The translations under genes were made by a program, and so were the position numbers. From Candidatus Omnitrophota bacterium (GTDB lineage Bacteria; Omnitrophota; Gorgyraeia; Duberdicusellales; 4484-171), in contig JAIPGM010000002.1 of NCBI GenBank assembly GCA_021735655.1, positions 258,747-322,746 of the forward strand: DNA of 64,000 nt, written 5' to 3'. The notes beneath the pieces were generated by a model. That model searched no databases, was not told where the DNA came from, and worked only from the letters and a program-made list of their open reading frames with translations. The stretch's first letter is position 1. Every line of letters starts with the position of its first letter. Below, in pieces: positions 7,394 through 41,938 of the stretch.

Positions 7394-7430
7394 ATTAAAA
7401 TTATATCATATCTTTGCTATAAACAAAGAC

Positions 7431-7458
7431 TTGAGAGTTAAAATATGCGTGCTATAAT
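7431..7458 (+). promoter_or_regulatory. Sigma-70-type promoter placing +1 on the yqeY start codon (leaderless candidate)
   Basis: TTGAGA (7431..7436), a 16 nt spacer, then TATAAT (7453..7458). The ATG at 7465 lies 7 nt after the -10 box, with no Shine-Dalgarno sequence in between. Confidence 0.4.
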
Positions 7459-7464
7459 AAGACC

Positions 7465-7911: not shown

Positions 7912-7912
7912 T

Positions 7913-8236
7913 TTACCACTCTCCAGACCATTCAACATCGCCACTTTTGCCTATGTCTTGAAAAAGCTCCTGAATGAATTCAATAATTGGATGAGTGTTT
8001 TTTTGAGCGGCCTTTTTAATTAGATTTTCTAAACGTTGAGGTTTTTCTATTTCCTCACTAACTTTATCAAAATTAAAATCAACTTCCTTGTCAAAATAGT
8101 TTTCTAGATCTTTCATGAAAATTTTTGAATTGTAGTTTTGACGATAATCAGCTAACCTAGTTATTTTCTCAGCTCTTTGACGACGAAAAGATTCAAGTCT
8201 AGGATCCTCTTTTTCGGGCCTTTTTGAATCACTCAT
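7913..8236 (-). CDS. Hypothetical acidic protein
   Basis: 107-aa ORF in the co-directional gene array. No motif recognised. Confidence 0.5.
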   Translation of the reverse strand: MSDSKRPEKEDPRLESFRRQRAEKITRLADYRQNYNSKIFMKDLENYFDKEVDFNFDKVSEEIEKPQRLENLIKKAAQKNTHPIIEFIQELFQDIGKSGDVEWSGEW

Positions 8237-25813: not shown

Positions 25814-27310
25814 CTAGAAAAAGAGATCTCTTTCGCCTTCTTTAATCCTTCGATAATAACTCATGAATTGGTCAAAAACCTGAGGGATGTTTTTGCGGAC
25901 TTCCTCTATTTCTTTCGTGATTACTTTCTCAGCTATATTTTTAGTTTCCTCGCTGGCAAAATCATCTAACCATTCACGAAAAGTTAAAACAGCATTTAAT
26001 TTACAAAATTTACCTTCTTGACCAGTTTTAAGTAACTCCATAATGCATTCACCCGTTCTGCCGCAGCGATAACCAGCAGTACAAAAAGAACTGATTACCC
26101 CCATTGAGGCAAACTCTCTAATCATCTCATCTAGGCTACGAGTATCAGCCAAAATAAATTGCTGTCGGGGGCTGTCTTGAGTTTTACTCTGATCGCTGTA
26201 TGAACCAATTCCTATTTTGGTAGAAGCATCAGTTTGAGTTATTCCTAGCCTGATTGAATCTCTCTTCATCTGAGGGGTTTCCCGACAAGTAATAATTAGA
26301 CCAGTATGAGGCACAGCCAGTCTAAGCACAGTAATTAACTTTTTAAACTGCTGATCCGAAACCTTATATTTTAAATTATCATTAAAAGGCGTGTTTTCTG
26401 CCGGTTCAAGGCGTGGAAAAGATATCGTATGAGCTCCGACACCAAATTTATCCTCTAATTCACGATTATGCGCAACCAAGCTCATTAGCTCAAACTTCCA
26501 ATCGTAAAGCCCAAATAAAACACCCAAGCCAACATCATCAACCCCAGCCTCAAAGGCACGATGCATCGCATAAAGTCGCCAGAAGTAATTTCCTTTTATT
26601 GTAGTTGGCGGATGAATAGTTTTATAGGTGGTCTTATGGTAAGTCTCTTGGAAAACTTGATAGGTACCAATTCCGACATCTTTTAGACGACCCAATTCCT
26701 CTATCGATAAGGGCGGAGCATTCACATTTACCCGACGAATCTGACCAACGCCATTTTTGGTTTTCTCCCGAACATTATAAATAGTACGAATTGAATCAAC
26801 CATGTAATTTATATCATTCGAAGGATGCTCTCCATAAACGACAATTAAACGTTTATGACCAATCTTACCAGCCAAAACAGCGGTTTCCTTCTCAACCTGC
26901 TTTAAGCTTAAGACTCGGCGTTCACTCTTTGTGTTAGATCGTCTGAAACCACAATAAAGACAATCATTAACACAATAATTCCCAAGATAAAGCGGAGCAA
27001 AGGTGACGATTCGATTGTCATAAACCTTTCGCTTCACCCTTAAGGCGCATTCCTTCATCAATTCTAATGTTTTAGAATCAGTTACCCTTAAAAGGGTTGC
27101 CGTCTCATCAAGAGTTAAAGTTTTAATCGCTAAGGATTTATTTAAAATGTCTTCGACTTCTTTGGAATCAGGCTCCTGAGTGCATGATAATTTCGTAAAG
27201 ATTTCTTTCTGAGGAATAAAATCCTTACCCTCAATCATATAACGCTCAATTTGGTCGCGCTTTATACGTTGAGACTCCCAACTCTGAAATTTATTAGTCT
27301 TAATTAACAT
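25814..27310 (-). CDS. hydG: HydG-like radical SAM enzyme (ThiH/HydG family, with a Cys-bearing C-terminal domain)
   Basis: 498 aa. Radical SAM motif CVNDCLYCGF and a ThiH/HydG-like core. The C-terminal FCTAGYRCGRTGECIMELLKTGQEGKFC sits where HydG carries its auxiliary-cluster cysteines. Confidence 0.75.
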   Translation of the reverse strand: MLIKTNKFQSWESQRIKRDQIERYMIEGKDFIPQKEIFTKLSCTQEPDSKEVEDILNKSLAIKTLTLDETATLLRVTDSKTLELMKECALRVKRKVYDNRIVTFAPLYLGNYCVNDCLYCGFRRSNTKSERRVLSLKQVEKETAVLAGKIGHKRLIVVYGEHPSNDINYMVDSIRTIYNVREKTKNGVGQIRRVNVNAPPLSIEELGRLKDVGIGTYQVFQETYHKTTYKTIHPPTTIKGNYFWRLYAMHRAFEAGVDDVGLGVLFGLYDWKFELMSLVAHNRELEDKFGVGAHTISFPRLEPAENTPFNDNLKYKVSDQQFKKLITVLRLAVPHTGLIITCRETPQMKRDSIRLGITQTDASTKIGIGSYSDQSKTQDSPRQQFILADTRSLDEMIREFASMGVISSFCTAGYRCGRTGECIMELLKTGQEGKFCKLNAVLTFREWLDDFASEETKNIAEKVITKEIEEVRKNIPQVFDQFMSYYRRIKEGERDLFF

Positions 27311-27952
27311 CTAACTTCCCTGCTTTACAAAAAATATTAAACTCTCTAACTCACAAGCCATATCAACGTTAGAAACAAATATATTATCAGGAACTTTCAA
27401 GGCAATTGGAGCGAAGTTAAGTATTCCCTTAATATTTGAATCGATTAACTGGTTAGCTATGTCTTGAGCTACTTCAGGCGGCGTAGCTATTATTGCTATT
27501 TTTATTCCATCTTTTTTAATCATTTCACTCAAATTATCAATAGCCTGAACTACGATACCTTTTTTTGTTTTACCAATCTTTTTCTGATCATTATCAAAAA
27601 TTGCAGTAATTTTTATATTAAACTTTGAAAAACCATCGAACCCCAACAAGGCCCCACCGACTCTACCTAGGCCTACCAAAGCAATATTCCAATCAATATG
27701 GGTTCCGACTATTTTTTGGATTTGTCCAATTAAAAAATCTACGTTATAGCCCACACCGCGCTTGCCAAATTCACCAAAATAAGACAAATCCTTTCTAAAC
27801 TGAGACGGAGTTACGTTTAAAAACTTAGTTATTTTATCCGAAGAAATAACTTCAACTCCCTGCTTTTTTATTTTTCGTAAGTTACGTAAATACAGAGTAA
27901 GCCTTCTGATCGTTTCCAAAGAAAAATGTTTCTTGTCTTTACTGTTTTTCAT
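27311..27952 (-). CDS. rex: Redox-sensing transcriptional repressor Rex
   Basis: 213 aa. N-terminal winged helix (TIRRLTLYLRNLR...ISS..I...L.V...QFRKDLSYFGEFGKRGVGY) followed by the Rossmann motif (VGLGRVG). Confidence 0.85.
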   Translation of the reverse strand: MKNSKDKKHFSLETIRRLTLYLRNLRKIKKQGVEVISSDKITKFLNVTPSQFRKDLSYFGEFGKRGVGYNVDFLIGQIQKIVGTHIDWNIALVGLGRVGGALLGFDGFSKFNIKITAIFDNDQKKIGKTKKGIVVQAIDNLSEMIKKDGIKIAIIATPPEVAQDIANQLIDSNIKGILNFAPIALKVPDNIFVSNVDMACELESLIFFVKQGS

Positions 27953-29270
27953 CAGATACTCTAGTATCCCGAGCTATACCTAAATCGGTAGGCGCCCGGC
28001 CTAAAGATTTAAGTAAATTAATAGTCTCAGTAATCTGATCATTAATCTCCGCTTCGCCATAGGCCTTATTAGGATAAATTGCATAATACTTTCGATATTT
28101 ACGCGGAGTTAAATTGAGCATTACCGAATTTCCACCCGAAGACAATCCTTTCTTGCGTGCCTCTAAAGATAAGGTCTCAAAGGCTGTGGTTATAAGAATT
28201 TTAGCCGCTTCTGGATCGATTAAACGAGCCAAAGCAAGGTTTTTTAAAACTTCTTCTTCAGAAGGAGCTTTGCAATTGGCCAAGAGACTATTCGGGTGAG
28301 GCAAAAATGGCCCAAATGAGTACATCTCAGAGCCCAAAGCCTTAGTTAGATAAATATCATTTATCGTATCTTGATTAGTTTGACCAGGCAAACCAATCAA
28401 GGCACCAGTCATAACTAAATACCCTAATTCATGGGCTTTTTTTAGATGATCCAGGCGACTATCTAAAGTTTGGCCAGGATGTAATTTCTCATAGATTTTA
28501 GGATTTGAAGTTTCAAAACGCATCAACAATGCTCTTGCCCCAGCCTGATAAAGCTTAAGCAATCCATCAAGCCCGACTTCACCAAAGCTTATACAAATCA
28601 AAACTGGAACCGTTTCTTTAATTTTTCTTATAATTTCCGCTAGATCATCTATGCTATAGTGTGGGTCTTCTCCCGATTGCAAAACTAAAGCCTGGAAACC
28701 ATACTCTTTAACGGCACCAACTGCCGTCTCAATGATTTCCGCCGCTGACATTCGATAACGCATAAGATTCTGGTTGTCAGCTGAAATACCACAATATTGA
28801 CAACTCTGCTTACAAAAATTAGATATTTCGATTATCCCATGAATACAACATGAATTTTTATGGTACTTTTGACGCAAAAAGTTAGCGGTTCGATAAAGAA
28901 TATCTTGAGCCTCAGGCTTATCTAACTTAAGTAAATAAAATAACTCTTCTTTACTCAATTGAATATTTTCTAAAGCTTTATCTAAAATAAGACTTAGCTG
29001 CCTGTCGATATTTTTTTTGCTAAGATCCAAGCGAGACAATCGTAAGTCCATATCCTGAAGTTCGAAAAAAAGCTCATTCCAAGCTGCCAAGGTCTCCTCA
29101 GCCTCCTTTGGGGAAACTTTTTTAATTACAAACCCGCCTTGAGCCGACACATAATCACCGGGTTTGATATCATAAAACTCATTGATTGCTTTTTTTTCTT
29201 CACCAAAGTAATCAACCAGAACGGTTTTCCCAACTATTTCTTTTACCTTGCCAGGTATTGCATAACACAT
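27939..29270 (-). CDS. hydE: HypC-like domain fused to a HydE-like radical SAM enzyme
   Basis: The N-terminal MCYAIPGKVKEIVGKTVLVDYFGEEKKA...GDYV..QGGFVI is the HypC/HupF signature (MC[LIVA][AG][LIV]P). It is followed by the radical SAM motif CKQSCQYCG and a HydE/BioB-like core (ETSNPKIYEKLHP, GLPGQT, FGPFLPHP). Start placed at the second Met so that Cys is residue 2. The ORF track starts 4 codons upstream, at 29282. Confidence 0.8.
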   Translation of the reverse strand: MCYAIPGKVKEIVGKTVLVDYFGEEKKAINEFYDIKPGDYVSAQGGFVIKKVSPKEAEETLAAWNELFFELQDMDLRLSRLDLSKKNIDRQLSLILDKALENIQLSKEELFYLLKLDKPEAQDILYRTANFLRQKYHKNSCCIHGIIEISNFCKQSCQYCGISADNQNLMRYRMSAAEIIETAVGAVKEYGFQALVLQSGEDPHYSIDDLAEIIRKIKETVPVLICISFGEVGLDGLLKLYQAGARALLMRFETSNPKIYEKLHPGQTLDSRLDHLKKAHELGYLVMTGALIGLPGQTNQDTINDIYLTKALGSEMYSFGPFLPHPNSLLANCKAPSEEEVLKNLALARLIDPEAAKILITTAFETLSLEARKKGLSSGGNSVMLNLTPRKYRKYYAIYPNKAYGEAEINDQITETINLLKSLGRAPTDLGIARDTRVSDEKQ

Positions 29271-29284
29271 AACAAACTCCAATT

Positions 29285-29527
29285 TTACTCTACATCAAAC
29301 GATAGCACCTGTATCACTGTTCCCGGGAAAAAAGTTAGCTCTAGCTCAGCCTTAGCACAAGGAGTCCCCTCAGCTAAAATTTTAAAGGTTTCTCTAAATG
29401 AATCCTCCTTGATCCCGTTCAGCTCACCGATTTTTATATGTATCTTAGACACTACCTTTGAGCCTTCTTTTTCAGCGTGTTCACAAATTCCTTTAATCAA
29501 TGGTTTTATGATATGGGTTTCGTGCAT
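29285..29527 (-). CDS. hypA: HypA-like nickel metallochaperone lacking the zinc-finger domain (80 aa)
   Basis: Carries the N-terminal MHE nickel-binding motif and a HypA-like core (MHETHIIKPLIKGICEHAEKEGSKVVSKIHIKIGELNGIKEDSFRETF). It stops before the CxxC...CxxC zinc site of full-length HypA. Confidence 0.65.
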   Translation of the reverse strand: MHETHIIKPLIKGICEHAEKEGSKVVSKIHIKIGELNGIKEDSFRETFKILAEGTPCAKAELELTFFPGTVIQVLSFDVE

Positions 29528-29982
29528 GTTTTTACCTCAATAATTAAATTAGTTAATTCCTTTAATGTTTTAGCAACACTTTGTGAAATCTCATCACCAA
29601 ACTCAAGAGTTTTCGGTTGCACCCCTAAAAGAAAAATATCAGCTTCGGTTTCTTTACCCAAAAAATCTAAAAACATCCTTGGTGATAAATCATGAGTAGT
29701 GAATCCCGATTTCACGATATCTTCCTTAACTAAAATCTCATAATCTCCTGGCTCTTTACCAAGATCAACAACATCAACTATTAAAATCGTATTTGGACGT
29801 TCTTTGGTTATTTTGCCAATATAGTTTTCTGGTGCTGAACCAACATCAATACAGGTTGCATCCACTTTCTGGTAAACAGTCTCAATGAACTTAGGACCGA
29901 AAGCATCGTCACCACGCATAATATTTCCTACCCCAACGATAACGACTTTCCCTTTAAAAACATTCCGAAAAATATTATTCAT
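29506..29982 (-). CDS. Hydrogenase maturation endopeptidase (HycI/HyaD family)
   Basis: 158 aa with the VVIVGVGNIMRGDDAFGP signature (GN..[RM]GDDG.G), plus the later D and H residues typical of the family. Confidence 0.8.
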   Translation of the reverse strand: MNNIFRNVFKGKVVIVGVGNIMRGDDAFGPKFIETVYQKVDATCIDVGSAPENYIGKITKERPNTILIVDVVDLGKEPGDYEILVKEDIVKSGFTTHDLSPRMFLDFLGKETEADIFLLGVQPKTLEFGDEISQSVAKTLKELTNLIIEVKTCTKPIS

Positions 29983-30022: not shown

Positions 30023-30634
30023 TTACTCAGCAGTAAGGGTGGTTTCACGTCGACAGCGGGCGCATAGAATCTTAACTCGATCAGAACGCCCATCATCCCT
30101 TAAAGCTGAAACAATATTTTCATCTACAATACCAAGACTTTTAAGATGGGAAAGATAAAGCGTAGGACTTGAGTAGGTAAGCTCACCTAATTTTTGAGAA
30201 ATCCATTTAAGGTGATCTTTGCAGGCTATTACATCGCCGCAAACTTCACAAAGTTGTAGTTCTTTTTCTATTTGTTCTTGGGCTTGAGCGCGGTCAAAAA
30301 ATGATAACTCCCAATCAGTAGATAACTTAATACCTTGCTTATCAGCCAAACAGGCTGCTTCACACTGTCCACAAAAAATACAAGTATCAGTATAATGAAT
30401 CATCAGCCGCTTAGGATCATCTTTATTTTCAGTAATATCCTTATGAGAAATCGCTTCAACTGGGCAAACCTCTTCACAACCGCAACAACCAACACATTTT
30501 TGATCATTAAACTTCGGCTGACCGCGAAAGTTAGGATGAGCCACATGGGCCTCTTTAGGGAACTTTGACGTGTAAGGCCCCTTAATCAATGCCTTGATTG
30601 CTTCAACCAACTCTCTTAATTTTGGCAACTTCAT
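30023..30634 (-). CDS. 2x[4Fe-4S] ferredoxin subunit (NuoI/HycF/MbhN-like) with an extra C-terminal Cys-rich region
   Basis: CVGCCGCEEVCP and CIFCGQCEAAC cluster motifs. The C-terminus carries CEVCGD...CARC. Confidence 0.8.
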   Translation of the reverse strand: MKLPKLRELVEAIKALIKGPYTSKFPKEAHVAHPNFRGQPKFNDQKCVGCCGCEEVCPVEAISHKDITENKDDPKRLMIHYTDTCIFCGQCEAACLADKQGIKLSTDWELSFFDRAQAQEQIEKELQLCEVCGDVIACKDHLKWISQKLGELTYSSPTLYLSHLKSLGIVDENIVSALRDDGRSDRVKILCARCRRETTLTAE

Positions 30635-30651
30635 AAATTTATCTTAAAAAA

Positions 30652-30727
30652 GAAGCGTAAAACGTAGTCTAGACTCAATATTCTTGAATCACCCGTGGCT
30701 AAAACTTTTCGTCTACGTTTACGCTTC
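30652..30727 (-). other. Long intra-operon stem-loop (15-16 nt arms) spanning the mnhG stop codon
   Basis: GAAGCGTAAAACGTAG (30652..30667) and CTACGTTTACGCTTC (30713..30727) are reverse complements apart from one extra A. An inner palindrome AGTCTAGACT sits at 30665..30674. Confidence 0.4.
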
Positions 30728-31057
30728 TCCTTCCTTATCCTCTTTATATTTATCAATTACACTACCTTCCCAAAGTTTAACCCCGGCCCGATGGGCTCCT
30801 CTGGCTACAGCATGGGCAGCTACCGGCGAGGTTAACAAAAGAAAAACCGCACAAAGAAGCGCCTTAAAGCCCGCGGCAATAAAGCCAACAATTAAAAATG
30901 TTCCAAAAAGAATACTACAAGTTCCTAAAGTAACACACTTGGTGGCTGCTTGAAGACGATTATATACATCCGGAAGTCTTACCAAACCTAAGCAACCAAC
31001 TATATCAAAAGCTAACCCACCGGAAATGAATATCAAACCAATAATATCACTCATCAA
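30719..31057 (-). CDS. Mrp-type cation/H+ antiporter subunit G (MnhG/MbhC-like)
   Basis: 112 aa with 3 TM helices and the signature LGLVRLPDVYNRLQAATK. Confidence 0.8.
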   Translation of the reverse strand: MMSDIIGLIFISGGLAFDIVGCLGLVRLPDVYNRLQAATKCVTLGTCSILFGTFLIVGFIAAGFKALLCAVFLLLTSPVAAHAVARGAHRAGVKLWEGSVIDKYKEDKEGEA

Positions 31058-31442
31058 ACCCTCTTCCCTCTAAATATTTCGAAAGAGCTAAGGTGCTAAT
31101 AAAACTTTGAAGCGCCCAAGCAATTCCAATATCCAGATACCAAGATCTTCCAGTCGAAATAGTTAAAACTGCACAAAGCCCCACAATCATAATCCCTAAA
31201 ATATCAATCGCTACAATTCTGTCGGCTCCGGTAGGACCTTTAGCAATACGATAAAGCGCCAGTACACATCCTAGAATTAGAATGTAAAGTGCCCTCCCAA
31301 CAAGACCACTATAGACGAGATTTTCAGGAAAAAGAAAACCAAAAGGCCTAAAAATAATTAAGCCTAAAACAATACTAAGGGTAGTTGCTCCAAACAGCCA
31401 ATTTAACATCTTTTTGCTTTCAGCTTTTTTCTTTTTAGCCAT
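31047..31442 (-). CDS. Mrp-type antiporter subunit F (MnhF/MbhB-like)
   Basis: 131-aa membrane protein with the motif KGPTGADRIVAIDILG. Confidence 0.75.
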   Translation of the reverse strand: MAKKKKAESKKMLNWLFGATTLSIVLGLIIFRPFGFLFPENLVYSGLVGRALYILILGCVLALYRIAKGPTGADRIVAIDILGIMIVGLCAVLTISTGRSWYLDIGIAWALQSFISTLALSKYLEGRGFDE

Positions 31443-31447
31443 AGTAA

Positions 31448-31945
31448 TTATTCAAATATTTTTCTTAATATTTTCTCAAACCGCTCAATAATAACTTTGG
31501 TAGCAGCTTCAGTCTGAGTTTCCTTCACGTCAATCCAATGTACATATAAAACACCATCATCCTTGTCAATATCTACAGTTAAAGTTCCTGGAGTAAGTGT
31601 TATTGAATTCGCTAAAAATGTAAGCGCTGTATCTGTCTTAAGCGTAGTTTTCACCTTAACAATGCCAGGTTTTATCGGTAAATTAGGATGTAGAATCCTG
31701 TAGGCAACATCAATATTTGCTTTAAAACACTCCCATAGAAATCTCGGAAGATAATAAACAAAAAAATACCAGTATCTCAAAGGGTGCTTAAGGACATGAG
31801 GACGTTTTACAAACAAATCTCCGGTTAAAAAAGCACAAAGAGCGGCTGCGAATACACCAATAGCTAGATGCTGCCAATCCGGTACCCAGTTCAATAAGCA
31901 CCATACAACAAAGGCAACTAAAAATAAAACTATTTTTCTTTTCAT
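31448..31945 (-). CDS. Mrp-type antiporter subunit E (MnhE/MbhA-like)
   Basis: 165 aa with two N-terminal TM helices and the MnhE-like pattern (ANIDVAYRILHP...P.IV...T.L....ALT.LANSITLTPGT). Confidence 0.7.
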   Translation of the reverse strand: MKRKIVLFLVAFVVWCLLNWVPDWQHLAIGVFAAALCAFLTGDLFVKRPHVLKHPLRYWYFFVYYLPRFLWECFKANIDVAYRILHPNLPIKPGIVKVKTTLKTDTALTFLANSITLTPGTLTVDIDKDDGVLYVHWIDVKETQTEAATKVIIERFEKILRKIFE

Positions 31946-33441
31946 TGGACTGCTCTGATAATATTTATTGTGTAGTTTTTTGTGCCAAGCAAAACCCCAG
32001 AGGCTTTAAGCAGGAATTGTTCTCTTATCCCCGGAAAAAATAAAAACCCACCTAAAAGGCAAACTAAAACTAAGATAATCATCGAAGCCTTCATGAAAGC
32101 AGGCACTTCAGTAATATTTTCCCACTGTTTCCTAAGATTTCCAAAAAATGCATACTTCATAACCTTGGTAAAAGAAGCAAGGGTCAAAATACTAGCCAAC
32201 ACTGCCCAAAAACCATACCAATACTGGTTGGCCTGAACACAAGCAATAATAATAATTAACTTGCTCCAAAAACCATTAAACGGCGGAATTCCAGCGATTG
32301 ACATAGAAGCTCCAAAAGCAGTAGCTGAGGTAACTGGCATTCTTTGACTTAATCCCCCCATTTTTTTTAAATCTCTGGTTCCGGTTGTGTATTCAACAGC
32401 ACCAGAATTTAAAAAAAGAAGAGATTTGAATATTGAGTGATTGAACAAATGGAATAAGCCTCCGATTATACCTAAAGGAGTGCCCAAACCTATCCCCAAA
32501 ATAACATAACCAATCTGGCTTATTGAATGATAGGCAAGCAAACGTTTCAAATCCCACTGTCCGATAGCCAAAAATACACCAACCACCATTGAGAGCGCAC
32601 CGAGCGCCATCAAAATCATTGAAAGCTGACTATTCACACCTAAAATATTAAAGAATATACGGCAAAGAGTGTATACTCCTAATGATTTAATCAATACCCC
32701 AGAAAGCATAGCTGATATTGGAGCTGGTGCTGAAGGATGAGCATCAGGAAGCCAGGCATGAAACGGCACCAAAGCTGCTTTTAAACCAAAACCCATAAGA
32801 AACAATACACTTACTAATATTAAAACATTTGGGCAGTCGGCTTGAGACAAAACTAAACCCATATCAGCCATATTTAGGGTTGAAGTGCAACTATATAGAA
32901 ATACAATACCTAAAAGAATAAATAATGACCCTACGGTACTCATCAGGGCATATTTAAAGGCGGCTTCAAGCTCATGGCGTTCAGTTCCAAAAGCAACCAG
33001 AGCATAACTAGCAACAGAGGCAATCTCTAAAAAAACAAAAAGGTTAAATATGTCGCCAGTTATCAAAACCCCGTTCATCCCTCCCAACATCAATAGAAAT
33101 AAGGTGTAAAATTTCCATTTAGCGGTGAACTTTTCCATGTAGTTAATTGAAAAAAGAGCTACACAAAAAGCAACTAAATTAACCGTAACTAACATAAAAC
33201 TAGTTAGACCGTCTAAGACAAAAGTTATCCCGATTGGCGGCTTCCAAGATCCAGCAGCATAAACCAACACTCCATGCTCAGCCACAAGTTTTACACTGTA
33301 AAGCGACAAAAATAAAAGAGCTGTTGTGCATAAATTACCAATTAAATCCGGCAGCCATTTACTTTTTTTACCAAACAAAACAGTTAAAAAGGCACCCGAA
33401 AGACAAACTACAACAAAAATTGGTATAATATTAGAACTCAT
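31942..33441 (-). CDS. Proton/cation-translocating antiporter-like subunit (MnhD/NuoM/NuoN family)
   Basis: 499-aa polytopic protein with conserved motifs (FHAWLPDAHPSAPAPISAMLSG, LLAYHSISQIGY). Confidence 0.85.
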   Translation of the reverse strand: MSSNIIPIFVVVCLSGAFLTVLFGKKSKWLPDLIGNLCTTALLFLSLYSVKLVAEHGVLVYAAGSWKPPIGITFVLDGLTSFMLVTVNLVAFCVALFSINYMEKFTAKWKFYTLFLLMLGGMNGVLITGDIFNLFVFLEIASVASYALVAFGTERHELEAAFKYALMSTVGSLFILLGIVFLYSCTSTLNMADMGLVLSQADCPNVLILVSVLFLMGFGLKAALVPFHAWLPDAHPSAPAPISAMLSGVLIKSLGVYTLCRIFFNILGVNSQLSMILMALGALSMVVGVFLAIGQWDLKRLLAYHSISQIGYVILGIGLGTPLGIIGGLFHLFNHSIFKSLLFLNSGAVEYTTGTRDLKKMGGLSQRMPVTSATAFGASMSIAGIPPFNGFWSKLIIIIACVQANQYWYGFWAVLASILTLASFTKVMKYAFFGNLRKQWENITEVPAFMKASMIILVLVCLLGGFLFFPGIREQFLLKASGVLLGTKNYTINIIRAVQ

Positions 33442-33443
33442 AT

Positions 33444-33779
33444 CTATCCCCGCAACTCTCTAATTTTAGTAATATCAAATGTTTGATACTTTTCATAAAT
33501 TCGCATAGCGATTGCAATAAGCAAAGCTGTTGATGCCAAACCAATAACAATTGAAGTCAAAACTACTGCCTGAGGTAAGGCATCGACCATATTATTAATT
33601 GTTGTGTCTGGTGAATATATCGGAGAACGCCCCTTTATCCGATAAGCAACTAAGATAAATAAAAGATTTACTGCATATTCAGCGATGATAACACCAATAA
33701 TAATCTTAATTATATTACGTTTACGTAAAATACAATAAAGACCAACACAAAAAAGCACCAAACAAAGCAAGTAGATCAT
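33444..33779 (-). CDS. Mrp antiporter subunit C (MnhC/NuoK/MbhG-like)
   Basis: 111 aa with 3 TM helices and the pattern DALPQAVVLTSIVIG. Confidence 0.8.
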   Translation of the reverse strand: MIYLLCLVLFCVGLYCILRKRNIIKIIIGVIIAEYAVNLLFILVAYRIKGRSPIYSPDTTINNMVDALPQAVVLTSIVIGLASTALLIAIAMRIYEKYQTFDITKIRELRG

Positions 33780-34231
33780 TTTCCTTCGGTTCCTCCATCA
33801 AATTTAAGCAAAGTAAGGGCAATAAATATAGCAAACAAACCGGCCCCGACCTTTAAACTAATTGCAATATTACAAAGTGGAATAATCCCAGCTGAAAAAA
33901 GTCTAAACGGCTCCCCCTTAGGAAGAAAGTTTAAAAAGAAATACCCACCAGTAAACCCCAAAAGGGCAATTGCTAAAAACATTATTGCTCCAAAACCTTC
34001 AAAAAAAGAAATAGCTTTCTTAGGCATTCTTTTTAAAGCCGCGTCTTTACCATAAGCAAGCATTAAATGAATAAAGCTGAGTGCAATAATTACCCCTCCG
34101 GCAAATCCTCCACCGGGGGAAACATGACCATGAGAAAGAATATAAATACCAAAAAGAAGTATTATGCCCACGGTAAGACGAGTAATTGTCTTAACGATTA
34201 CCGACATTCCCTTTTCATGCTCTTTGCTCAT
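33776..34231 (-). CDS. Mrp antiporter subunit B (MnhB/MbhF-like)
   Basis: 151 aa with the motif GHVSPGGGFAGGVI, typical of the MnhB domain. Confidence 0.75.
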   Translation of the reverse strand: MSKEHEKGMSVIVKTITRLTVGIILLFGIYILSHGHVSPGGGFAGGVIIALSFIHLMLAYGKDAALKRMPKKAISFFEGFGAIMFLAIALLGFTGGYFFLNFLPKGEPFRLFSAGIIPLCNIAISLKVGAGLFAIFIALTLLKFDGGTEGK

Positions 34232-34780
34232 TTATTCATCCTCTGGGTCTACTTTCTCATTAATTTTTTTACGCCCGACCCTGCGCACTAGGGTTAAAAC
34301 ACCTATTACTGCGGTAAATAAAACTGTAGCTTCACCTAAGGTGTCATAGGCTCGATAATCAAGAATAACTGAAGCAACAATATTAGTTGCTCCGGTCTTA
34401 GCTAAGCCTTGCTTAAGATAAGTATCGGCCACCCGCATAATTGGATAACCAAAACGTGGCAAATCACCAATTGCCTTATAGGCTGCAAATAAAAATAAAC
34501 TAACAAAGCCTAAAATAATTGAGGTATTAAGTAACCATCGACCACTAGTTGAAAAAGGTAAATCTTTTTTTAAAGTTGCCCGAATCAAAATGATTAAACA
34601 TAATATCTCAACTACTAATTGAGTAATTGCAACATCGGGAGCTTTGAGAATAATAAACGTTATCGAAAGCCCTAGCCCTACGGCACCGACGGCAATAACT
34701 GAGGAAAGCAGATCTTTAAGCTCAACGGCGACAATTGCCCCAACAATCATAAAAATTAATAAAATATATAGCTCAAACAT
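34232..34780 (-). CDS. MbhD/MbhE-like subunit (DUF4040 plus MnhB-related N-domain)
   Basis: 182 aa. The N-terminal half resembles DUF4040 (the C-terminal module of MnhA). The C-terminal half carries the MnhB-type motif NIVASVILDYRAYDTLGE. Confidence 0.7.
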   Translation of the reverse strand: MFELYILLIFMIVGAIVAVELKDLLSSVIAVGAVGLGLSITFIILKAPDVAITQLVVEILCLIILIRATLKKDLPFSTSGRWLLNTSIILGFVSLFLFAAYKAIGDLPRFGYPIMRVADTYLKQGLAKTGATNIVASVILDYRAYDTLGEATVLFTAVIGVLTLVRRVGRKKINEKVDPEDE

Positions 34781-34787
34781 ATTTAAG

Positions 34788-36446
34788 TTACTTTAAAAGT
34801 ATATAAAAAAGTATCCCCATACCTAAAAGACACCAGGACAAATAAGTAGATAAAATGCCATTATGCAAATAACGCAAAATACTGTTAAAGCCAAAAGTAA
34901 TTTTACTACCGACTTCATAAATATCGAATAATTTCTTATTAGCTAAACTATAGATAACCTTTAACAGGCCCAACTCTTTGATTGTGTTATAAAAATCAGT
35001 TCCTGAAACTCTCATCTCGGGATATTTTTCAGTGCTTTCTCCGCCCATAAAAATATTAACCTGGCGACTCTTTGAAACTGTGCCCAAAAGATAAACTATT
35101 AGACCAATGACCATGCCAGCAAGAATCAAAGCCGTAGCTAAACTTGCATTCCAGACTCCGGAAAACTCTACTGGCTGCCAAATAACCGGAAAGATAAAAA
35201 ACTTAAGCGGAAGCCGGTAAGCAAATACACCAAAAACTACACATAGTAAGGCTAAAATTGCTCCCGGTATCCACATCGCTAGCCCAACCTCTTTTTTCTG
35301 ATCTTTACTGAGTGCTTTTACGGTTGTGCTTTCTTGACCCAAAAATACAGCATGAACAAGTTTCATGAAACTTGCCAAAGTTAAGGCACTTCCAAACATG
35401 GCTGAAACTAACCAAACGACCCATAACCCACCACTGTTTTTAGCCGTCTCAATGATACCCTGGTAGATCATCCATTTAGAAACAAAACCATTAAATGGCG
35501 GAACCCCAGAGATAGCAAATGAAGCAATCAAAAAAGTAATAAAAGTAATCGGCATATATTTAGCAAGACCGCCAAGTTTATCTAAATTAGTAGTTTTGGT
35601 CCTTTTTTCTACAGAGCCACTGGTTAAAAATAAACAAGACTTATAAATCGCATTATTCAGCATATGAAATAGTCCACCGGCAATACCGATAATTGTACCC
35701 GTACCAATACCTAAAATCATATAACCAACTTGACTTACCGCATGATAACCAAGGAGTCTCTTTAAGTCATGTTGGACTAAAGCCATCATAACCGCAGCTA
35801 TAATAGTAAAGCTACCGATAAACATCAAAAATGTATTCATGCTTAAACCTAAACGAAACATTTCCAAGGAAATTCTAATTAAAAGATATATTCCCAAAAG
35901 TTTGTCCAAAGAAGCAGGCAAATAAGCCGCAACCGGAGTTGGTGAGTCTTCAGCTGCGTCAGGAACCCAGGTATGAAAAGGCATAGCCCCGGCTTTAGCA
36001 AAAGCTCCGACCGCCAAACAAAGATAGGCAAAAGTAGCCACCTTAGAAGTCAATGGTATTGATATTAAATCCATCTCGAATAAACCGGTAAGTTTCCAAA
36101 TTAAGGCAACTCCCAAAAGCATTAAAGCATCGGTTCCACCAATTATAATAAATGCTTTCTTTGCCGTAGCTGAGCTATTATCCTTTTTACCAAAGCCAAT
36201 TAAAAGATAAAGAAGCAACCCCAAGAATCCCCAGAAAACCATGAACAGAATTAAATTATTGGCAAAAACCACACCCAAAGAAGCAATCAAAGTAAAAAAG
36301 ATATAAAGGTAGTAACGTGAAATTCCACGTTGGGCACGCATGTACCCCATCGAATATACAGTTACCAAAATAGAAAAAAACCAAATAAATATTCCGACAA
36401 ATATCGACAAAGCATCAAATCTAAAATAATTCGCTAAAAAATTCAT
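34788..36446 (-). CDS. Antiporter-like membrane subunit (NuoL/MnhA/MbhH/HyfB family)
   Basis: 552-aa polytopic protein (FHTWVPDAAEDSPTPVAAYL, LLGYHAVSQVGYM). Confidence 0.85.
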   Translation of the reverse strand: MNFLANYFRFDALSIFVGIFIWFFSILVTVYSMGYMRAQRGISRYYLYIFFTLIASLGVVFANNLILFMVFWGFLGLLLYLLIGFGKKDNSSATAKKAFIIIGGTDALMLLGVALIWKLTGLFEMDLISIPLTSKVATFAYLCLAVGAFAKAGAMPFHTWVPDAAEDSPTPVAAYLPASLDKLLGIYLLIRISLEMFRLGLSMNTFLMFIGSFTIIAAVMMALVQHDLKRLLGYHAVSQVGYMILGIGTGTIIGIAGGLFHMLNNAIYKSCLFLTSGSVEKRTKTTNLDKLGGLAKYMPITFITFLIASFAISGVPPFNGFVSKWMIYQGIIETAKNSGGLWVVWLVSAMFGSALTLASFMKLVHAVFLGQESTTVKALSKDQKKEVGLAMWIPGAILALLCVVFGVFAYRLPLKFFIFPVIWQPVEFSGVWNASLATALILAGMVIGLIVYLLGTVSKSRQVNIFMGGESTEKYPEMRVSGTDFYNTIKELGLLKVIYSLANKKLFDIYEVGSKITFGFNSILRYLHNGILSTYLSWCLLGMGILFYILLK

Positions 36447-37630
36447 TTTATGCCTAGTTTACTTTTTATCTTTTCGGTTTTACTTTGTGAAAGGCGAACT
36501 AAATCCTCACCGTTATATATTTTTTTACCCTTAGTGTTACGTACCGCCACTCTCTCAGTACAACAATAACAAGGATCAATGGACGCTAAAATTATCGTTG
36601 CATCAGAAATCGTCTCGCCAACCACAGTTGCCTTATAGGTCGGTAAATTCATAAAAGTAGGTGCTCTTACTTTGTGACGAGCCGGTCGATTGGTCCCATC
36701 GCTTTTCACATAATGAAAACATTCACCCCGCGGCGCCTCAATATGACCGATACCTTCACCTGAAGGAATACTTTTAATCTTAGCATCAATTTCTGTATCC
36801 GGAAGGTTTAAAAGGCAATACTTAACCATATCTATCGATTCAAAAGTCTCTAAAATTCTTACTACCGCTTTATCGAAAACATCGCCATTTTTAGTCACAA
36901 TCATATTCCAGTTAAACTGATCATATGCCCCATAAGGAGAATTTTTACGTAGATCTCTGGCCACCCCCGAAGCCCGAGATACCGGACCGAGAGCACAAAA
37001 GTTAATTGCCTCATCCTTAGTGAGGATACCTATTCCTTTAGTCCTAGCATGTAACACCGGGTCATCGATTACTGCCTTTTTAAGCATTTCAAGAGTCGGG
37101 ATAATCGAATCTATCTTTTTTATCGCAAAAGGTATATCTTCTTTTTTTATGTCTCGCCGAACCCCTCCCGGCTTAAACATAGCATAGTTGTTGCGATTTC
37201 CCGAAAGTGCCTCCATAACATCAAGGATTTCCTCACGCAACTTCCAAGCCCACATATAAACAGTATTGTAACCTAAAAAATGTCCGGCAAGACCCAACCA
37301 TAAAAGATGTGAATGAATACGTTCTCCCTCAGCGATAATTGTTCGGATATATTTAGCCCTCATTGGCACTTCTAGAGGGATAACATCCTCAACTGCCCGA
37401 GTATAAGCATAAGGATGACTGGTTGAACAAATACCACAGATTCTCTCAATTACAAAAGTAGATTGGTCGAAGGTTTTTCGCTCAGAAAGCTTTTCAATGC
37501 CGCGATGGTTATAACCAATCTGAACATCGATATCAACAACTGTCTCCCCATCTACAGTTAAGCTGAAAAACTCAGGCTCTTCCTGTAAAGGGTGATATGG
37601 TCCGATTGGAACTATAGTTCGTTTTCCCAT
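36443..37630 (-). CDS. Group 4 [NiFe] hydrogenase large subunit (MbhL/EchE/HycE-type, NuoD homolog)
   Basis: Both Ni-Fe ligand pairs are present: N-terminal RICGICSTSH and C-terminal DPCYCCTER. A ~33-aa C-terminal extension follows, as expected for an endopeptidase-processed subunit. Confidence 0.9.
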   Translation of the reverse strand: MGKRTIVPIGPYHPLQEEPEFFSLTVDGETVVDIDVQIGYNHRGIEKLSERKTFDQSTFVIERICGICSTSHPYAYTRAVEDVIPLEVPMRAKYIRTIIAEGERIHSHLLWLGLAGHFLGYNTVYMWAWKLREEILDVMEALSGNRNNYAMFKPGGVRRDIKKEDIPFAIKKIDSIIPTLEMLKKAVIDDPVLHARTKGIGILTKDEAINFCALGPVSRASGVARDLRKNSPYGAYDQFNWNMIVTKNGDVFDKAVVRILETFESIDMVKYCLLNLPDTEIDAKIKSIPSGEGIGHIEAPRGECFHYVKSDGTNRPARHKVRAPTFMNLPTYKATVVGETISDATIILASIDPCYCCTERVAVRNTKGKKIYNGEDLVRLSQSKTEKIKSKLGIK

Positions 37631-38103
37631 TATAATCCTCGATCTCTAATTGATGAGTCGTCCCACTCTTGATAATCGCGTCTCAAAGGATATACACCTT
37701 GTGGCCACTCATCGGGCAAAAGCAACCGCTTCAACTCTGGATGACCGCGAAAATTGACTCCTAACATTTCAGCTATCTCACGTTCAATCCAATTAGCACC
37801 TTCAAATATTGGGGCTAATGAATCTATTTCTAATTTGCTCTTATCCAACTTAACCCGGAAAGAAACTACTAAATTTATATCTTCAAAGGTAAAATGATAA
37901 AGAATTTCTATATGTTTAAATGTATCTACTCCCGAAGCAATATTGAATCTGGCCCCCAAATTTTTAAAAACATAGGTCGCAACCTTAACAATCGCCTGAG
38001 GTTTAATCTCAATATAGACCCGAGTTAAGGTCTTATCGAAAATATCTAAAATATCTTCGTCGAATCTTTTCTTTAAATCTTTAATAACTTCGCTTCTGGT
38101 CAT
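37630..38103 (-). CDS. NuoC/MbhK-like 30 kDa-type subunit
   Basis: 157 aa with the C-terminal motif EREIAEMLGVNFRGHPELKRLLLPDEWP. Confidence 0.85.
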   Translation of the reverse strand: MTRSEVIKDLKKRFDEDILDIFDKTLTRVYIEIKPQAIVKVATYVFKNLGARFNIASGVDTFKHIEILYHFTFEDINLVVSFRVKLDKSKLEIDSLAPIFEGANWIEREIAEMLGVNFRGHPELKRLLLPDEWPQGVYPLRRDYQEWDDSSIRDRGL

Positions 38104-38540
38104 TTTGCTTGAGGGTTTCCAGCCCCACTTAATTTATCGATTAACTTAACAACCCCGGCAATAATCGCCTCTGGTTTCGGCGGGCACCCAGGTATATATA
38201 CGTCTACCGGAATAATTTTATCAACTGGCAAAGGACAGTTATAGCTATGAATAAACATACCTCGCGACAAAGAGCACTCACCAACAGCCACTACTACACA
38301 AGGCTTCGGCATCTGCTCATATACTTCTTTAATCCGAGGAATGCACTTTCGATTAGCAGAACCAGTTACTAAAAGCACGTCAGCATGTTTTATGCTTCCG
38401 GCTAAAAGCATGCCAAACCTTTCGATATCAAAGCGTGGGGTTAAACAATCCAATATTTCAATATCGCAATTATTGCAACTACCAGTTGAAAGATGAAAAA
38501 CCCATGGTGACTTGAGTAATGCTTTAAGTTTTATGCTCAT
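38100..38540 (-). CDS. [NiFe] hydrogenase small subunit, NuoB/MbhJ-like ([4Fe-4S] N2-type)
   Basis: Cys ligands at CNNC, GEC and PGCPP. Start placed at the ATG at 38540, which overlaps the upstream stop as ATGA. The tracked 5' extension uses TTG and overlaps the NuoH-like gene. Confidence 0.85.
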   Translation of the reverse strand: MSIKLKALLKSPWVFHLSTGSCNNCDIEILDCLTPRFDIERFGMLLAGSIKHADVLLVTGSANRKCIPRIKEVYEQMPKPCVVVAVGECSLSRGMFIHSYNCPLPVDKIIPVDVYIPGCPPKPEAIIAGVVKLIDKLSGAGNPQAK

Positions 38541-39460
38541 AAACCCTTTAAGGCTAAAATAACTGCGATTATAGCAATAATCAACATTGGCCCCCAAAAA
38601 AATCTTATTGCCTGATCAATTCTAACTCTAGGATTAGTATTACGAATAACGGTGATCAAGGCAACCAAACCAACATACCTCAACACCCCGTATATAAGAT
38701 TTAAGCCGTTTAGTCTTAACCCACCAATAAAAGTAATCATTATAAAGAAAGGCAAGACAAAGAACAACATATTTTTCATAAGTTTGTATACCGCAAGCGG
38801 GGCTCCCGAATACTCAACTAACGGTCCACCAATAATTTCGGTCTCAGCTTCAGGAATATCAAAAGGCACTAAGGCTAGTTTTGCCTGTACACACATAATA
38901 ATTACAATAAAAGCCAAAAACCCCGACCAGCTTCCTAAGATTACGCCATTTTGAGCCTGATAAGTGATAATTTCACCTAAACGCAAGCTAAACCCGCTTT
39001 GAATAACCGGAACTAAAACCGCTAGAATAAATGGCAATTCATAACTTAAAACTAATTTCATTTCTCGTGATGCACCAATACTAGCTAAAGGATTGCCTGA
39101 AGCAAAGCCTCCGATAATTATGCTTATTGAAGGAATAGCCAATAAATAAACTACAACAACAATATCACCAACAAAGGTCCTCAGCGGATTAAAATTATTA
39201 AACCAAAGCACCGTAGACACAACAATAACACTCCCTAAACCAATAATCGGAGCGCTCAAAAAACTAAACTGAGAAGCGCCTTTAGGAACCAAAGTCTCTT
39301 TTCCAAGAAGCTTCACCAAATCAATAAGCGGCTGTAGGATTGGCGGCCCAACGCGATACTGAACTCGAGCGGTAACTTTACGGTCAACCCAGCTAGTTAA
39401 CAAACCAATAATGGCGGTTAACAAGAATCCGAAAATAAAAAGATAAACTAAATAAATCAT
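38537..39460 (-). CDS. NuoH/HycD/MbhM-like membrane subunit
   Basis: 307-aa polytopic protein with the N-terminal motif DRKVTARVQYRVGP and a later FDIPEAETE motif, as in the NADH dehydrogenase subunit 1 family. Confidence 0.85.
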   Translation of the reverse strand: MIYLVYLFIFGFLLTAIIGLLTSWVDRKVTARVQYRVGPPILQPLIDLVKLLGKETLVPKGASQFSFLSAPIIGLGSVIVVSTVLWFNNFNPLRTFVGDIVVVVYLLAIPSISIIIGGFASGNPLASIGASREMKLVLSYELPFILAVLVPVIQSGFSLRLGEIITYQAQNGVILGSWSGFLAFIVIIMCVQAKLALVPFDIPEAETEIIGGPLVEYSGAPLAVYKLMKNMLFFVLPFFIMITFIGGLRLNGLNLIYGVLRYVGLVALITVIRNTNPRVRIDQAIRFFWGPMLIIAIIAVILALKGL

Positions 39461-40023
39461 ACTTTTTCTCTATCCCAATGAGTAGAATGTACTATTAAAT
39501 TGTCACCAACTAAAAATGAATCTTTGGTTAATAAATCATCCGAATTTACTAATTTTAATGCTCCGTATGGGCATGATTTTATGCAAAGCGGTTCATTTTT
39601 TTTATCTCTTCGATCAAAACAAAAATCACAATTATGAATTAAATAAGGCACATGCTCAGGATAAATGGTTCCGTAAGGGCAAGCATGAGAACAAGTTTTG
39701 CAACTTACGCAACGCATATTATGCCTAATCAAAAGGTTGTCTTTTTCGGTTTGTTGTTCCAAAGCCTCAAATGGGCAAGCATTAACACAGTGAGGTTCTT
39801 GGCATCTACGACAAACCAAAGCATAAGTTGCCAATTCAGCTACTGAAACTATTCCATTATTTATCGGATCTTGAGTGTGGTAAAAATAGCTGCACTCTAA
39901 CTTACATTTTTTGCATTCTCCGGCCGCACAAATATCAAGATCAACAAAAAGCCGTTGACCACTATCAGATTTAGCTTCGGTATTTAATTTTCCTTGATGT
40001 AGTTGTTCGGCACTTGTATCCAT
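39457..40023 (-). CDS. Poly-[4Fe-4S] ferredoxin (HycB-like electron-transfer subunit)
   Basis: 188 aa with four Cys clusters (CAAGECKKCKLEC; CRRCQEPHCVNACP; CVSCKTCSHACP; CDFC...CIKSCP). Confidence 0.8.
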   Translation of the reverse strand: MDTSAEQLHQGKLNTEAKSDSGQRLFVDLDICAAGECKKCKLECSYFYHTQDPINNGIVSVAELATYALVCRRCQEPHCVNACPFEALEQQTEKDNLLIRHNMRCVSCKTCSHACPYGTIYPEHVPYLIHNCDFCFDRRDKKNEPLCIKSCPYGALKLVNSDDLLTKDSFLVGDNLIVHSTHWDREKV

Positions 40024-40030
40024 AATAGCT

Positions 40031-41920: not shown

Positions 41921-41938
41921 TTGTGATTTTATTCACAA
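41921..41938. promoter_or_regulatory. Rex operator (perfect 18-bp palindrome TTGTGA-N6-TCACAA)
   Basis: TTGTGATTTTATTCACAA matches the Rex box consensus TTGTGAAnnnnTTCACAA. It lies between the predicted promoter and the first gene of the hydrogenase operon, which itself encodes Rex. Confidence 0.7.

Follow-up and report, generated by a model that had tools for sequence, protein, structure and literature searches.

Candidate maturation of [NiFe] hydrogenases by HydG and a HypC-fused HydE-like enzyme in Candidatus Omnitrophota

The window analyzed here (the whole stretch of 64,000 nucleotides from contig JAIPGM010000002.1 of a Candidatus Omnitrophota bacterium) carries a gene string for a group 4 [NiFe] hydrogenase, the last genes of which include those for a HypC domain fused to a HydE-like radical S-adenosylmethionine (SAM) enzyme, for the repressor Rex, and for HydG. 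We refer to the radical SAM domain of the fusion as HydE* and to the whole protein as HypC::HydE*. It is probable, in our assessment, that the last genes of the operon constitute a dedicated maturation module, in which chemistry of the [FeFe] type has been recruited for the iron half of the [NiFe] site. Judging from sequence comparison, HydG and HypC::HydE* take the operon position and most likely also the function of HypC, HypD, HypE, and HypF. An earlier note on this DNA had proposed such a hybrid route, with [FeFe]-type maturases serving a [NiFe] enzyme via the fused HypC, and all comparative tests that were run support it. The genes described in the note were all recovered on the minus strand, at the stated coordinates, as open reading frames (ORFs) with matches to family models (Table 1).

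Conservation and gene neighborhoods of the fusion

The N-terminal part of the fusion is recognized by Pfam HupF_HypC, which covers residues 5-68 of the 447-amino acid (aa) ORF with 55.9 bits (gathering score 28.5), so that the HypC-like region is indeed detectable by a profile hidden Markov model (HMM). It is also matched by HypC of T. kodakarensis (PDB 2Z1C, E = 1.1e-10), and the columns of M1, C2, and P6 are invariant in the fused domain. With the TIGR00074 HypC model, the fusion falls slightly under the cut-off (43.3 versus 48 bits). A translation start at 29270, which would provide Cys2, had been suggested; MCYAIP forms the start of 112 of the 120 best homologues, which supports this ATG and Cys2 as the second residue.

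The fusion of the HypC domain to a radical SAM enzyme is conserved in relatives, with more than 120 protein clusters having it. The best 120 clusters at 90% identity are 59-80% identical to the window fusion, and all but two shorter ones have both the HypC and the radical SAM Pfam domains; the nearest relatives belong to uncultured Candidatus Omnitrophota. When one genome was scanned for each GTDB species, the yield was 39 full-length fusion loci with 47-72% identity, 28 of them labeled Omnitrophota, the other labels being uncultured Planctomycetia/Planctomycetales, Spirochaetota, Auribacterota, Gammaproteobacteria, and "bacterium". In an exhaustive search of representatives at 50% identity, 22 of the top 150 are fused. 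A metagenome scan added 30 more loci related to the fusion, bringing the fusion set to 69 loci (1.06 Mb), with approximately 10 kb covered on either side of each locus. The ORFs of the loci were searched with the window proteins, with HydA, HydF, HydE, and TM1266 of Ca. Gygaella, and with the Hyp proteins of E. coli. An exact-sequence look-up of the window fusion (with both starts) and of the window HydG returned no record.

The survey of HypC-radical SAM fusions that the earlier note had called for links them to [NiFe] enzymes. Of the 69 fusion loci as fetched, 48 also contain a gene for a [NiFe] large subunit. Where loci were read gene by gene, the fusion is an immediate neighbor of [NiFe] genes, which belong to three hydrogenase types. 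The first type has the gene order of the window, i.e., an Mbh-Mrp hydrogenase, the protease HycI, an 80-aa HypA, the fusion, Rex, and HydG (L001, L004, L011-L023, L030, L049, and others); from HycI and HypA to HydG, this order following the Mbh genes recurs in relatives at 60-80% identity. The second is a group 3b-like four-subunit enzyme, encoded in the order Fer4_22 protein, FAD/NAD protein, NuoB-like protein, 462-aa large subunit, and HycI, followed by the fusion. The third is a small group 4 enzyme (L040-L047). HydG directly follows the fusion in L026, L028, L032, L035, and L037, as well as in L029, behind an Mbh-type enzyme. The arrangement is far beyond chance, as dozens of relatives share the gene order at 47-80% identity.

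In four loci, each in or after a [NiFe] operon, HypC, HydE*, and HydG form a single polypeptide, HypC::HydE*::HydG (Table 1). Other arrangements include a stand-alone HydE* (P0261) encoded directly after the C-terminus of a large subunit (...YDPCMSCAAH...) and before HydG, the order HypA, HypB, fusion, HydG in L076, and a trio of 80-aa HypA, fusion, and HydG that is encoded apart from any hydrogenase (none within 10 kb) in the closed genome CP070684.1. The [FeFe] genes also occur next to fusions: L033 carries HydF-HydG-HydE, then a [NiFe] enzyme, then the fusion, and in L022, L025, and L039 the [NiFe] enzyme and the fusion adjoin HydA-TM1266-HydG-HydE.

Several neighborhoods are of interest in their own right. 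In L040, a gene for a CbiM-type Ni/Co uptake permease (7366-8226) lies directly after the fusion, with a membrane pyrophosphatase gene further downstream. A 91-aa HydF-like ORF (12739-13011), which may be fragmentary or mark the beginning of a HydF gene, is located just after fusion-HydG in the [NiFe] locus L028. The fusion is isolated in L036 and L046 (contigs of 2.7 and 2.0 Mb, respectively, labeled uncultured Spirochaetota), where the surrounding 10 kb contain no gene for a hydrogenase, HydG, or a Hyp protein; genes for an ABC transporter and for diaminopimelate epimerase are among its neighbors in L036.

Comparison with loci of the classical Hyp proteins

The lack of HydA, HydF, HypD, HypE, and HypF in the window, as stated in the earlier note, was confirmed: a phmmer search of all six-frame ORFs of the 64 kb, with the E. 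coli Hyp proteins and with HydA and HydF from an Omnitrophota as queries, gave no match to any of them or to HypB, even at E ≤ 10. The fusion loci behave in the same way. Fifty-one loci with a stand-alone hypC (0.47 Mb), taken from the same metagenome scan, served as the control. HypD, HypE, or HypF is present in none of the 69 fusion loci versus 31 of the 51 control loci (Fisher exact p = 1.6e-15); for loci of at least 6 kb, the respective counts are 0/55 and 21/27. HydG shows the opposite distribution (38/69 versus 1/51), the single control locus apparently being L083, which resembles a fusion cut off by the contig end. HydF and HydA were found in two and three of the 69 fusion loci, respectively, and a second, stand-alone HypC in none of them (1.06 Mb).

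Some loci with classical Hyp genes permit a direct comparison of operons. L118 and L126 contain the terminal part of a homologous Mbh-Mrp operon, after which come a full-length HypA and, behind it, HypF-HypC-HypD-HypE; L118 shares 67% identity with the window in MnhE, 50% in NuoI, and 41% in HycI. An assignment of these two loci to Omnitrophota was ruled out, relatives of their HypD being labeled Elusimicrobia. Within Omnitrophota, L135 combines a [NiFe] hydrogenase, HycI, and a 78-aa HypA with HypF-HypC-HypD-HypE, and contains neither HydG nor HydE*. The two gene sets look like alternatives, because homologous operons carry either HypF-C-D-E or the HydG-based set in the equivalent position. 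When the HypD of L118 was used as a query, none of its matches agreed with the fusion or HydG matches in the length of the longest contig (compared by eye), which is a weak result, the top 120 HypD matches being mostly Elusimicrobia-like.

The fused HypC domain shares with the HypC/HybG/HupF chaperones the oligonucleotide/oligosaccharide-binding (OB) fold, the N-terminal Met-Cys, and the usual place of hypC after the protease and hypA. Unlike classical HypC, it is covalently joined to a radical SAM enzyme, and it would not pair with HypD, which is encoded neither in the window nor in the 69 fusion loci. A second difference concerns the position of His51 in E. coli HypC, which is His in none of 51 fused domains (Gln in 46, including the window fusion) versus 40 of the 51 stand-alone HypC proteins of the control loci. 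In classical HypC, C2 is essential and His51 is conserved, the latter being thought to aid iron binding on the HypCD scaffold (PMC12134894).

These data bear on the possibility of a partial role, in which HypD, HypE, and HypF would be encoded elsewhere, HydG and the fusion would supply only, e.g., CO or pre-carbonylated iron, and a specialized HypC paralogue would feed the HypCD scaffold or the large subunit directly. CO is a product of HydG, the phylum does contain classical Hyp genes, and the searches of the fusion loci span neighborhoods rather than whole genomes. Further, where CO comes from under anaerobic conditions is acknowledged to be a gap (PMC12134894), and extra HypC paralogues are described as frequent in bacteria with several hydrogenases (PMC9002611). 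Nonetheless, we rate a partial role as unlikely, in view of the lack of HypD, HypE, HypF, and a second HypC in all 69 fusion loci against their frequency in the longer control loci, the loss of the His implicated in HypCD iron binding, and the equivalent positions of the classical and the HydG-based sets in homologous Mbh-Mrp operons. Parts of the supplementary tables of Seymour et al. (2023) offer anecdotal cases, which were not used as evidence: one genome has KEGG orthologs of hypA, hypC, hypD, hypE, and hypF plus Mrp and no thiH- or bioB-like ones, another has HydE/F/G together with HypA-E TIGRFAMs, and yet another has thiH- and bioB-like orthologs and no hyp ones.

Divergence of HydE* from canonical HydE

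The radical SAM domain had been described as HydE/BioB-type, a claim that stood as to fold and complex-B-site residues and failed as to membership in HydE proper. T. maritima HydE (TmHydE) matches this part of the fusion with E = 4e-64, and the TIGR03956 HydE model gives 248.9 bits, just under the cut-off of 254.6. Thus, of the HMM assignments envisaged earlier, Pfam HypC and TIGR03955 for HydG are above their thresholds, whereas TIGR03956 and TIGR00074 are slightly below. An AlphaFold2 model of the whole two-domain fusion has a mean predicted local distance difference test score of 92 and a predicted template modeling (TM) score of 0.91. The modeled radical SAM domain superimposes on TmHydE (3IIZ) with a TM score of 0.94 and a root-mean-square deviation of 1.6 Å, versus TM scores of 0.83-0.87 for PylB and BioB. 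HydE* has in common with TmHydE (3IIZ/7O1O) the full (beta/alpha)8 radical SAM fold, 37-38% identity, the CX3CX2C motif, and HydG as the genetic partner; it differs from canonical HydE in the N-terminal HypC domain, in having no auxiliary-cluster cysteines, and in its neighbors, which are [NiFe] genes, not HydF or HydA.

In a neighbor-joining tree of 185 HydE-domain sequences, 119 unfused HydE proteins form a pure clade, which includes TmHydE and two Omnitrophota HydE from HydF-HydG-HydE clusters (L007, L033). All 60 fused domains are placed outside this clade, together with six sequences that are nominally unfused (two being fragments). The TIGR03956 scores agree with this separation, being 249 (window) and 230.3 bits (L009) for fused domains versus 326.1 bits for an unfused Omnitrophota HydE. 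The divergence appears confined to the HydE part, since HydG proteins of both contexts score alike on TIGR03955 (448-468 bits) while the fused HydE-like scores drop. By these measures, HydE* is a predicted HydE-like subfamily of its own and not an equivalog-level HydE. Moreover, we conclude that HydE and HydE* are probable non-redundant paralogues, because a canonical HydE coexists with the fusion where [FeFe] genes are present.

The two ends of the active site differ in conservation. Residues of the complex-B site, namely Q107, R159, E161, R180, M224, T268, T269, and M291 (T. maritima numbering), are kept in 88-100% of the fused sequences, and the set (with T268/T269) is kept in both clades; of these, M224 and M291 correspond to conserved methionines that have been considered in connection with the complex-B and S3 sites (PMC10114646). 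At the other end, R54 (Arg in 109 of 119 canonical sequences) is His in all 60 fused sequences, T134 (Thr in 107/119) is Phe in 40 and Cys in 14 of them, and R155 (Arg in 103/119) is Gly in 42 and Ala in 18. Two further columns gain cysteines: position 52 (His in TmHydE and variable among canonical proteins) is Cys in 60/60, and position 51 (Val or Ile in canonical proteins, Val in TmHydE) is Cys in 49/60. In a 2025 computational study, R54, T134, R155, and T269 are in contact with the CN ligands of two Fe(I) units that dimerize inside HydE (PMC11826987). The substrate end would thus be kept and the di-iron product end rebuilt, as expected if the product is a single iron unit.

A reading of HydE* as an enzyme of unrelated radical SAM chemistry has also to be weighed. 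The domain would then have HypC, the large subunit, or a small molecule as its substrate instead of the HydG product, and its link to HydG would be indirect. Other relatives of the BioB/PylB/HmdB group carry out differing reactions, and HydE*, being below the equivalog cut-off for HydE, also matches the PylB, BioB, and HmdB models at 64-165 bits; several fusion loci have no nearby HydG. We regard this reading as improbable, as the fold is far nearer to TmHydE than to PylB or BioB, the complex-B-site residues are kept, and HydG is covalently fused in four loci and adjacent in most others.

HydG and its cysteine motif

The last gene of the operon encodes a predicted HydG, which aligns with T. 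italicus HydG (4WCX) over residues 26-498 (E = 4e-128) and has a ThiH-like barrel with the radical SAM cysteines C113, C117, and C120 invariant. On TIGR03955, the HydG partners of the fusions in other loci reach 439-631 bits. The His that aligns with the one in the ...LYHANH... segment of T. italicus HydG is kept in all HydGs compared; we take it to be the dangler-iron ligand, presumably His265 in the usual numbering. The dangler iron of HydG is known to be bound by a conserved His (PMC10114646). Unlike known HydGs (4WCX, 4RTB), the window HydG is encoded in a [NiFe] operon without HydF.

The C-terminal cluster motif of this HydG is atypical, and its description in the earlier note was exact. 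The strict CX2CX22C is missing: the second Cys is replaced by Gly, and cysteines are found at 0, +6, +12, and +26, the outer pair being canonically spaced. The C-terminus thus reads SFCTAGYRCGRTGEC...x13...FC versus SYCTACYRMGRTGDR...FC in 4WCX or, in a shorter form, FCTAGYRCGRTGEC...FC versus YCTACYRMGRTGDR...FC in T. italicus HydG. FCTAGYRC with the Cys at +6 is found in 119 of the 120 best homologues, and the Cys at +12 in approximately 108 of them.

A tie of the motif to the [NiFe] context did not hold. A HydG of Ca. Gygaella obscura, 67% identical to that of the window, has the same variant motif and belongs to a cluster of an [FeFe] A3 hydrogenase, TM1266, HydF, HydG, and HydE. There are two HydG lineages, with the variant CTAGYRC and the canonical CAACYR, and both adjoin fusions. 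The variant as a mark of a [NiFe]-specialized HydG was therefore ruled out: it also occurs in HydF-HydG-HydE clusters, one of them by [FeFe] genes, and canonical-motif HydGs follow fusions. We conclude that it is more plausibly a lineage trait than a [NiFe] adaptation. It is probably compatible with HydG function, because it is present in the HydG of a canonical HydF-HydG-HydE/[FeFe] cluster, and we conclude that the window protein is a standard HydG, predicted to be able to serve either partner.

The same observations could be taken to mean that the genes encode ordinary [FeFe] maturases for an [FeFe] hydrogenase located elsewhere, brought here by common Rex control, with the HypC-like domain as a generic OB-fold add-on. 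HydG is canonical by score, its 67%-identical orthologue belongs to a genuine [FeFe]-HydF-HydG-HydE cluster, [FeFe] genes are found next to some of the fusion loci, and V. archaeovorus combines a 4g [NiFe] hydrogenase with an A3 [FeFe] one (PMC10066038). Yet wherever [FeFe] genes are seen (L033, L022, L025, L039), a separate canonical HydE accompanies them, and HydE* groups apart from HydE in the tree and is changed at the di-iron product site. Most fusion loci lie beside [NiFe] structural, protease, or HypA genes, 67 of the 69 have no HydF, the MCxxxP N-terminus with Cys2 is nearly invariant, and the triple fusions are inside [NiFe] operons. In addition, Omnitrophota metagenome-assembled genomes from Ace Lake have one hydrogenase type each, and those with group 4g have no [FeFe] enzyme (PMC8542988; the statement concerns hydrogenases and does not extend to the fusion). 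In our judgment, ordinary [FeFe] maturation is a very improbable explanation of the fusion and its HydG.

Proposed pathway of cofactor assembly

We propose that many Omnitrophota and a few other uncultured lineages could build Fe(CN)2(CO) without HypD, HypE, and HypF, in such a way that HydG supplies CO and CN, HydE* frees a mononuclear fragment, and HypC delivers it; we put this full scheme forward tentatively, at somewhat less than even chances. HydG would cleave tyrosine and, in the manner of canonical HydG, assemble on its auxiliary cluster an Fe(CO)x(CN)y synthon bound to cysteine. The HydE* domain would bind the synthon via the kept complex-B residues, and a 5'-deoxyadenosyl radical would remove the cysteine scaffold. 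HydE* would then hold a single Fe-carbonyl-cyanide unit, plausibly on Cys142/His144, whereas canonical HydE pairs two Fe units at R54/T134/R155 and passes the product to HydF. From HydE*, the unit would move to Cys2 of the tethered HypC domain, which would insert it into the precursor of the large subunit. Finally, the short HypA would add nickel, and HycI would cleave the C-terminal extension. The carrier or acceptor role of the HypC domain for a HydE-type product would be analogous to the HydF step of [FeFe] maturation. HydF is nevertheless unrelated to HypC in sequence: it is a GTPase with a [4Fe-4S] cluster and carries a 2Fe unit, whereas HypC is a small OB-fold protein carrying a single Fe via Cys2.

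A number of points weigh against the proposed route. The weakest step is the stoichiometry: the HydG product contains two CO and one CN, whereas the [NiFe] site has one CO and two CN, and no proposed step converts the former ratio to the latter. The roles given to Cys142 and His144 are conjecture. Approximately one-third of the longer fusion loci (e.g., L036, L046, and L040-L047) have no HydG within 10 kb. The neighborhood counts for HypD/E/F, HydF, and HydA reach about 10 kb per side, not whole genomes, and classical Hyp genes do occur in some Omnitrophota. Three fusion loci (L022, L025, L039) have [FeFe] genes with their own HydG and HydE, and a fourth (L033) has HydF-HydG-HydE; in such loci HydG may be shared or may be primarily an [FeFe] maturase. 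The tree that separates HydE* from HydE is of the neighbor-joining kind and carries no support values.

Organization of the operon and the remaining genes of the window

The tightly packed gene string from 41873 down to 25814 probably forms one Rex-autoregulated operon, because a perfect Rex operator lies upstream of its first gene; autoregulation of rex is suggested because the gene sits inside the operon behind this operator. The operator is the sole zero-mismatch match to TTGTGA-N6-TCACAA in the 64 kb, and we take the palindrome to be a Rex box on the basis of the established Rex consensus. The rex gene is placed between the fusion gene and hydG, with an overlap of 14 nt between its start and the end of the former.

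The order of the hydrogenase subunits is NuoH-like, NuoB-like small subunit, NuoC-like, large subunit, NuoL-like, MbhD/E, MnhB, NuoK-like, MnhD, MnhE, MnhF, MnhG, and NuoI-like. Both metal-binding motifs are present in the large subunit, which also carries a C-terminal extension on which the protease would act, and we therefore regard the predicted product as a genuine nickel-iron enzyme of the Mbh-Mrp group 4 type. Group 4g, in HydDB terms, has been published for Omnitrophota (PMC8542988, PMC10066038), while the window enzyme is placed to group 4 only. The three electron-input genes at the head of the operon hint at an NAD(P)H-linked membrane-bound hydrogenase. The pair of Fer4_22 and FAD/NAD(P)-binding proteins resembles sulfhydrogenase beta/gamma or AsrAB.

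The HypA of the window consists of the MHE nickel-binding half only, ending at residue 80 without the zinc-finger CxxC pairs, and is below the cut-off of TIGR00100 (47.3 versus 88.1 bits). A HypA of 78-85 aa fills the same place in related loci (e.g., 8444-8686 in L009), and full-length HypA with CxxC pairs is seen in Elusimicrobia-like and other loci. The short form as a part of the novelty was ruled out, as the 78-aa HypA of L135 (3907-4143) accompanies classical HypF-C-D-E in Omnitrophota. Among the loci compared, the short HypA is a lineage trait of Omnitrophota.

The GC content of the window is approximately 37%, and the GC skew is uniformly negative across the 64 kb. The strand bias is extreme: among the ORFs of at least 100 aa, only six lie outside the minus strand, and four of the six overlap longer minus-strand genes. 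The remaining genes are housekeeping ones, including lipopolysaccharide synthesis, topoisomerase, tRNA synthetase, and pyruvate phosphate dikinase. A 1069-aa homologue of elongation factor G (4184-7393, minus strand) is unusual in that its GTPase domain begins only at residue 382; the N-terminal 380 aa seemingly comprise a membrane helix, then a long charged coiled-coil-like region.

Table 1. Features of the operon in the window and of the triple fusions (the latter in coordinates of their own loci)
Feature	Coordinates	Strand	Basis or remark
Rex operator palindrome TTGTGAATAAAATCACAA, perfect	41921-41938		48 bp upstream of the operon's first gene
Whole gene string of the [NiFe] operon	41873 down to 25814	minus	tightly packed
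Three electron-input genes at the operon head: Fer4_22 protein, FAD/NAD(P)-binding protein with Fe-S domain, HycB-like 2x[4Fe-4S] protein	39457-41873	minus	Pfam
Mbh-Mrp type group 4 [NiFe] hydrogenase genes	30023-39460	minus	Pfam
[NiFe] large subunit, 395 aa	36443-37630	minus	RICGICSTSH, DPCYCCTER, and C-terminal extension
HycI-type maturation endopeptidase	29506-29982	minus	TIGR00072 103 bits (cut-off 47), Pfam HycI 64 bits
Short HypA, 80 aa	29285-29527	minus	Pfam HypA 54.8 bits, profile positions 1-70 of 112
HypC::HydE* fusion, 443 aa from ATG 29270 (MCYAIPGKV)	27939-29270 (ORF to 29282, 447 aa)	minus
HypC domain, approximately aa 1-78	29037-29270	minus	Pfam HupF_HypC
HydE*-specific C-C-x-H motif (Cys141, Cys142, His144)	28839-28850	minus	replaces V51, H52, R54 of TmHydE
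Radical SAM CX3CX2C of HydE* (Cys153, Cys157, Cys160)	28791-28814	minus	invariant columns
Rex redox-sensing repressor	27311-27952	minus	NF003995 257.6 bits (cut-off 126)
HydG, 498 aa, predicted tyrosine-lyase type radical SAM maturase	25814-27310	minus	TIGR03955 448.5 bits (cut-off 312.15)
HydG variant C-terminal cluster motif C410-x5-C416-x5-C422-x13-C436	26003-26083	minus	replaces CX2CX22C
Triple fusion, L016	9998-12763		922 aa, closed chromosome CP070797.1
Triple fusion, L054	10001-12721		906 aa
Triple fusion, L053	10001-12646		881 aa
Triple fusion, L064	3616-6384		923 aa

Discussion

To our knowledge, the current view is that all [NiFe] hydrogenases need six Hyp proteins. A search of the PMC and bioRxiv literature (subscription journals being outside its scope) found no description of a system of HydG and HypC::HydE*. 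A 2025 review of [NiFe] cofactor biosynthesis names neither HydG nor radical SAM enzymes (PMC12134894), and a 2026 preprint on complete Omnitrophota genomes leaves hydrogenases unmentioned. We classify the system as a new chimeric variant of known hydrogenase maturation systems. Proteins of the fusion type are currently annotated as "HydE", "biotin synthase", "radical SAM protein", or "HypC family chaperone", and the HydG/HydE annotations of Omnitrophota should not be counted as evidence for an [FeFe] hydrogenase.

For experimental work, the same hydrogenase family, provided with either the classical Hyp or the HydG-based set, offers a ready comparison for the making and transfer of Fe(CN)2CO, and the triple fusions (881-923 aa) are attractive single-polypeptide targets for biochemistry and cryo-electron microscopy. 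The four or five genes concerned may amount to a minimal kit for the heterologous production of [NiFe] hydrogenases. If the proposed route is true, many Omnitrophota and a few other uncultured lineages would possess a second, evolutionarily independent pathway to the [NiFe] cofactor, and with it a defined enzymatic source of the CO ligand under anoxic conditions. With a CO- and CN-generating enzyme of the [FeFe] system linked, in physical as well as genetic terms, to the [NiFe] system's iron carrier, the two maturation systems would be interchangeable at the level of the Fe-carbonyl-cyanide synthon.

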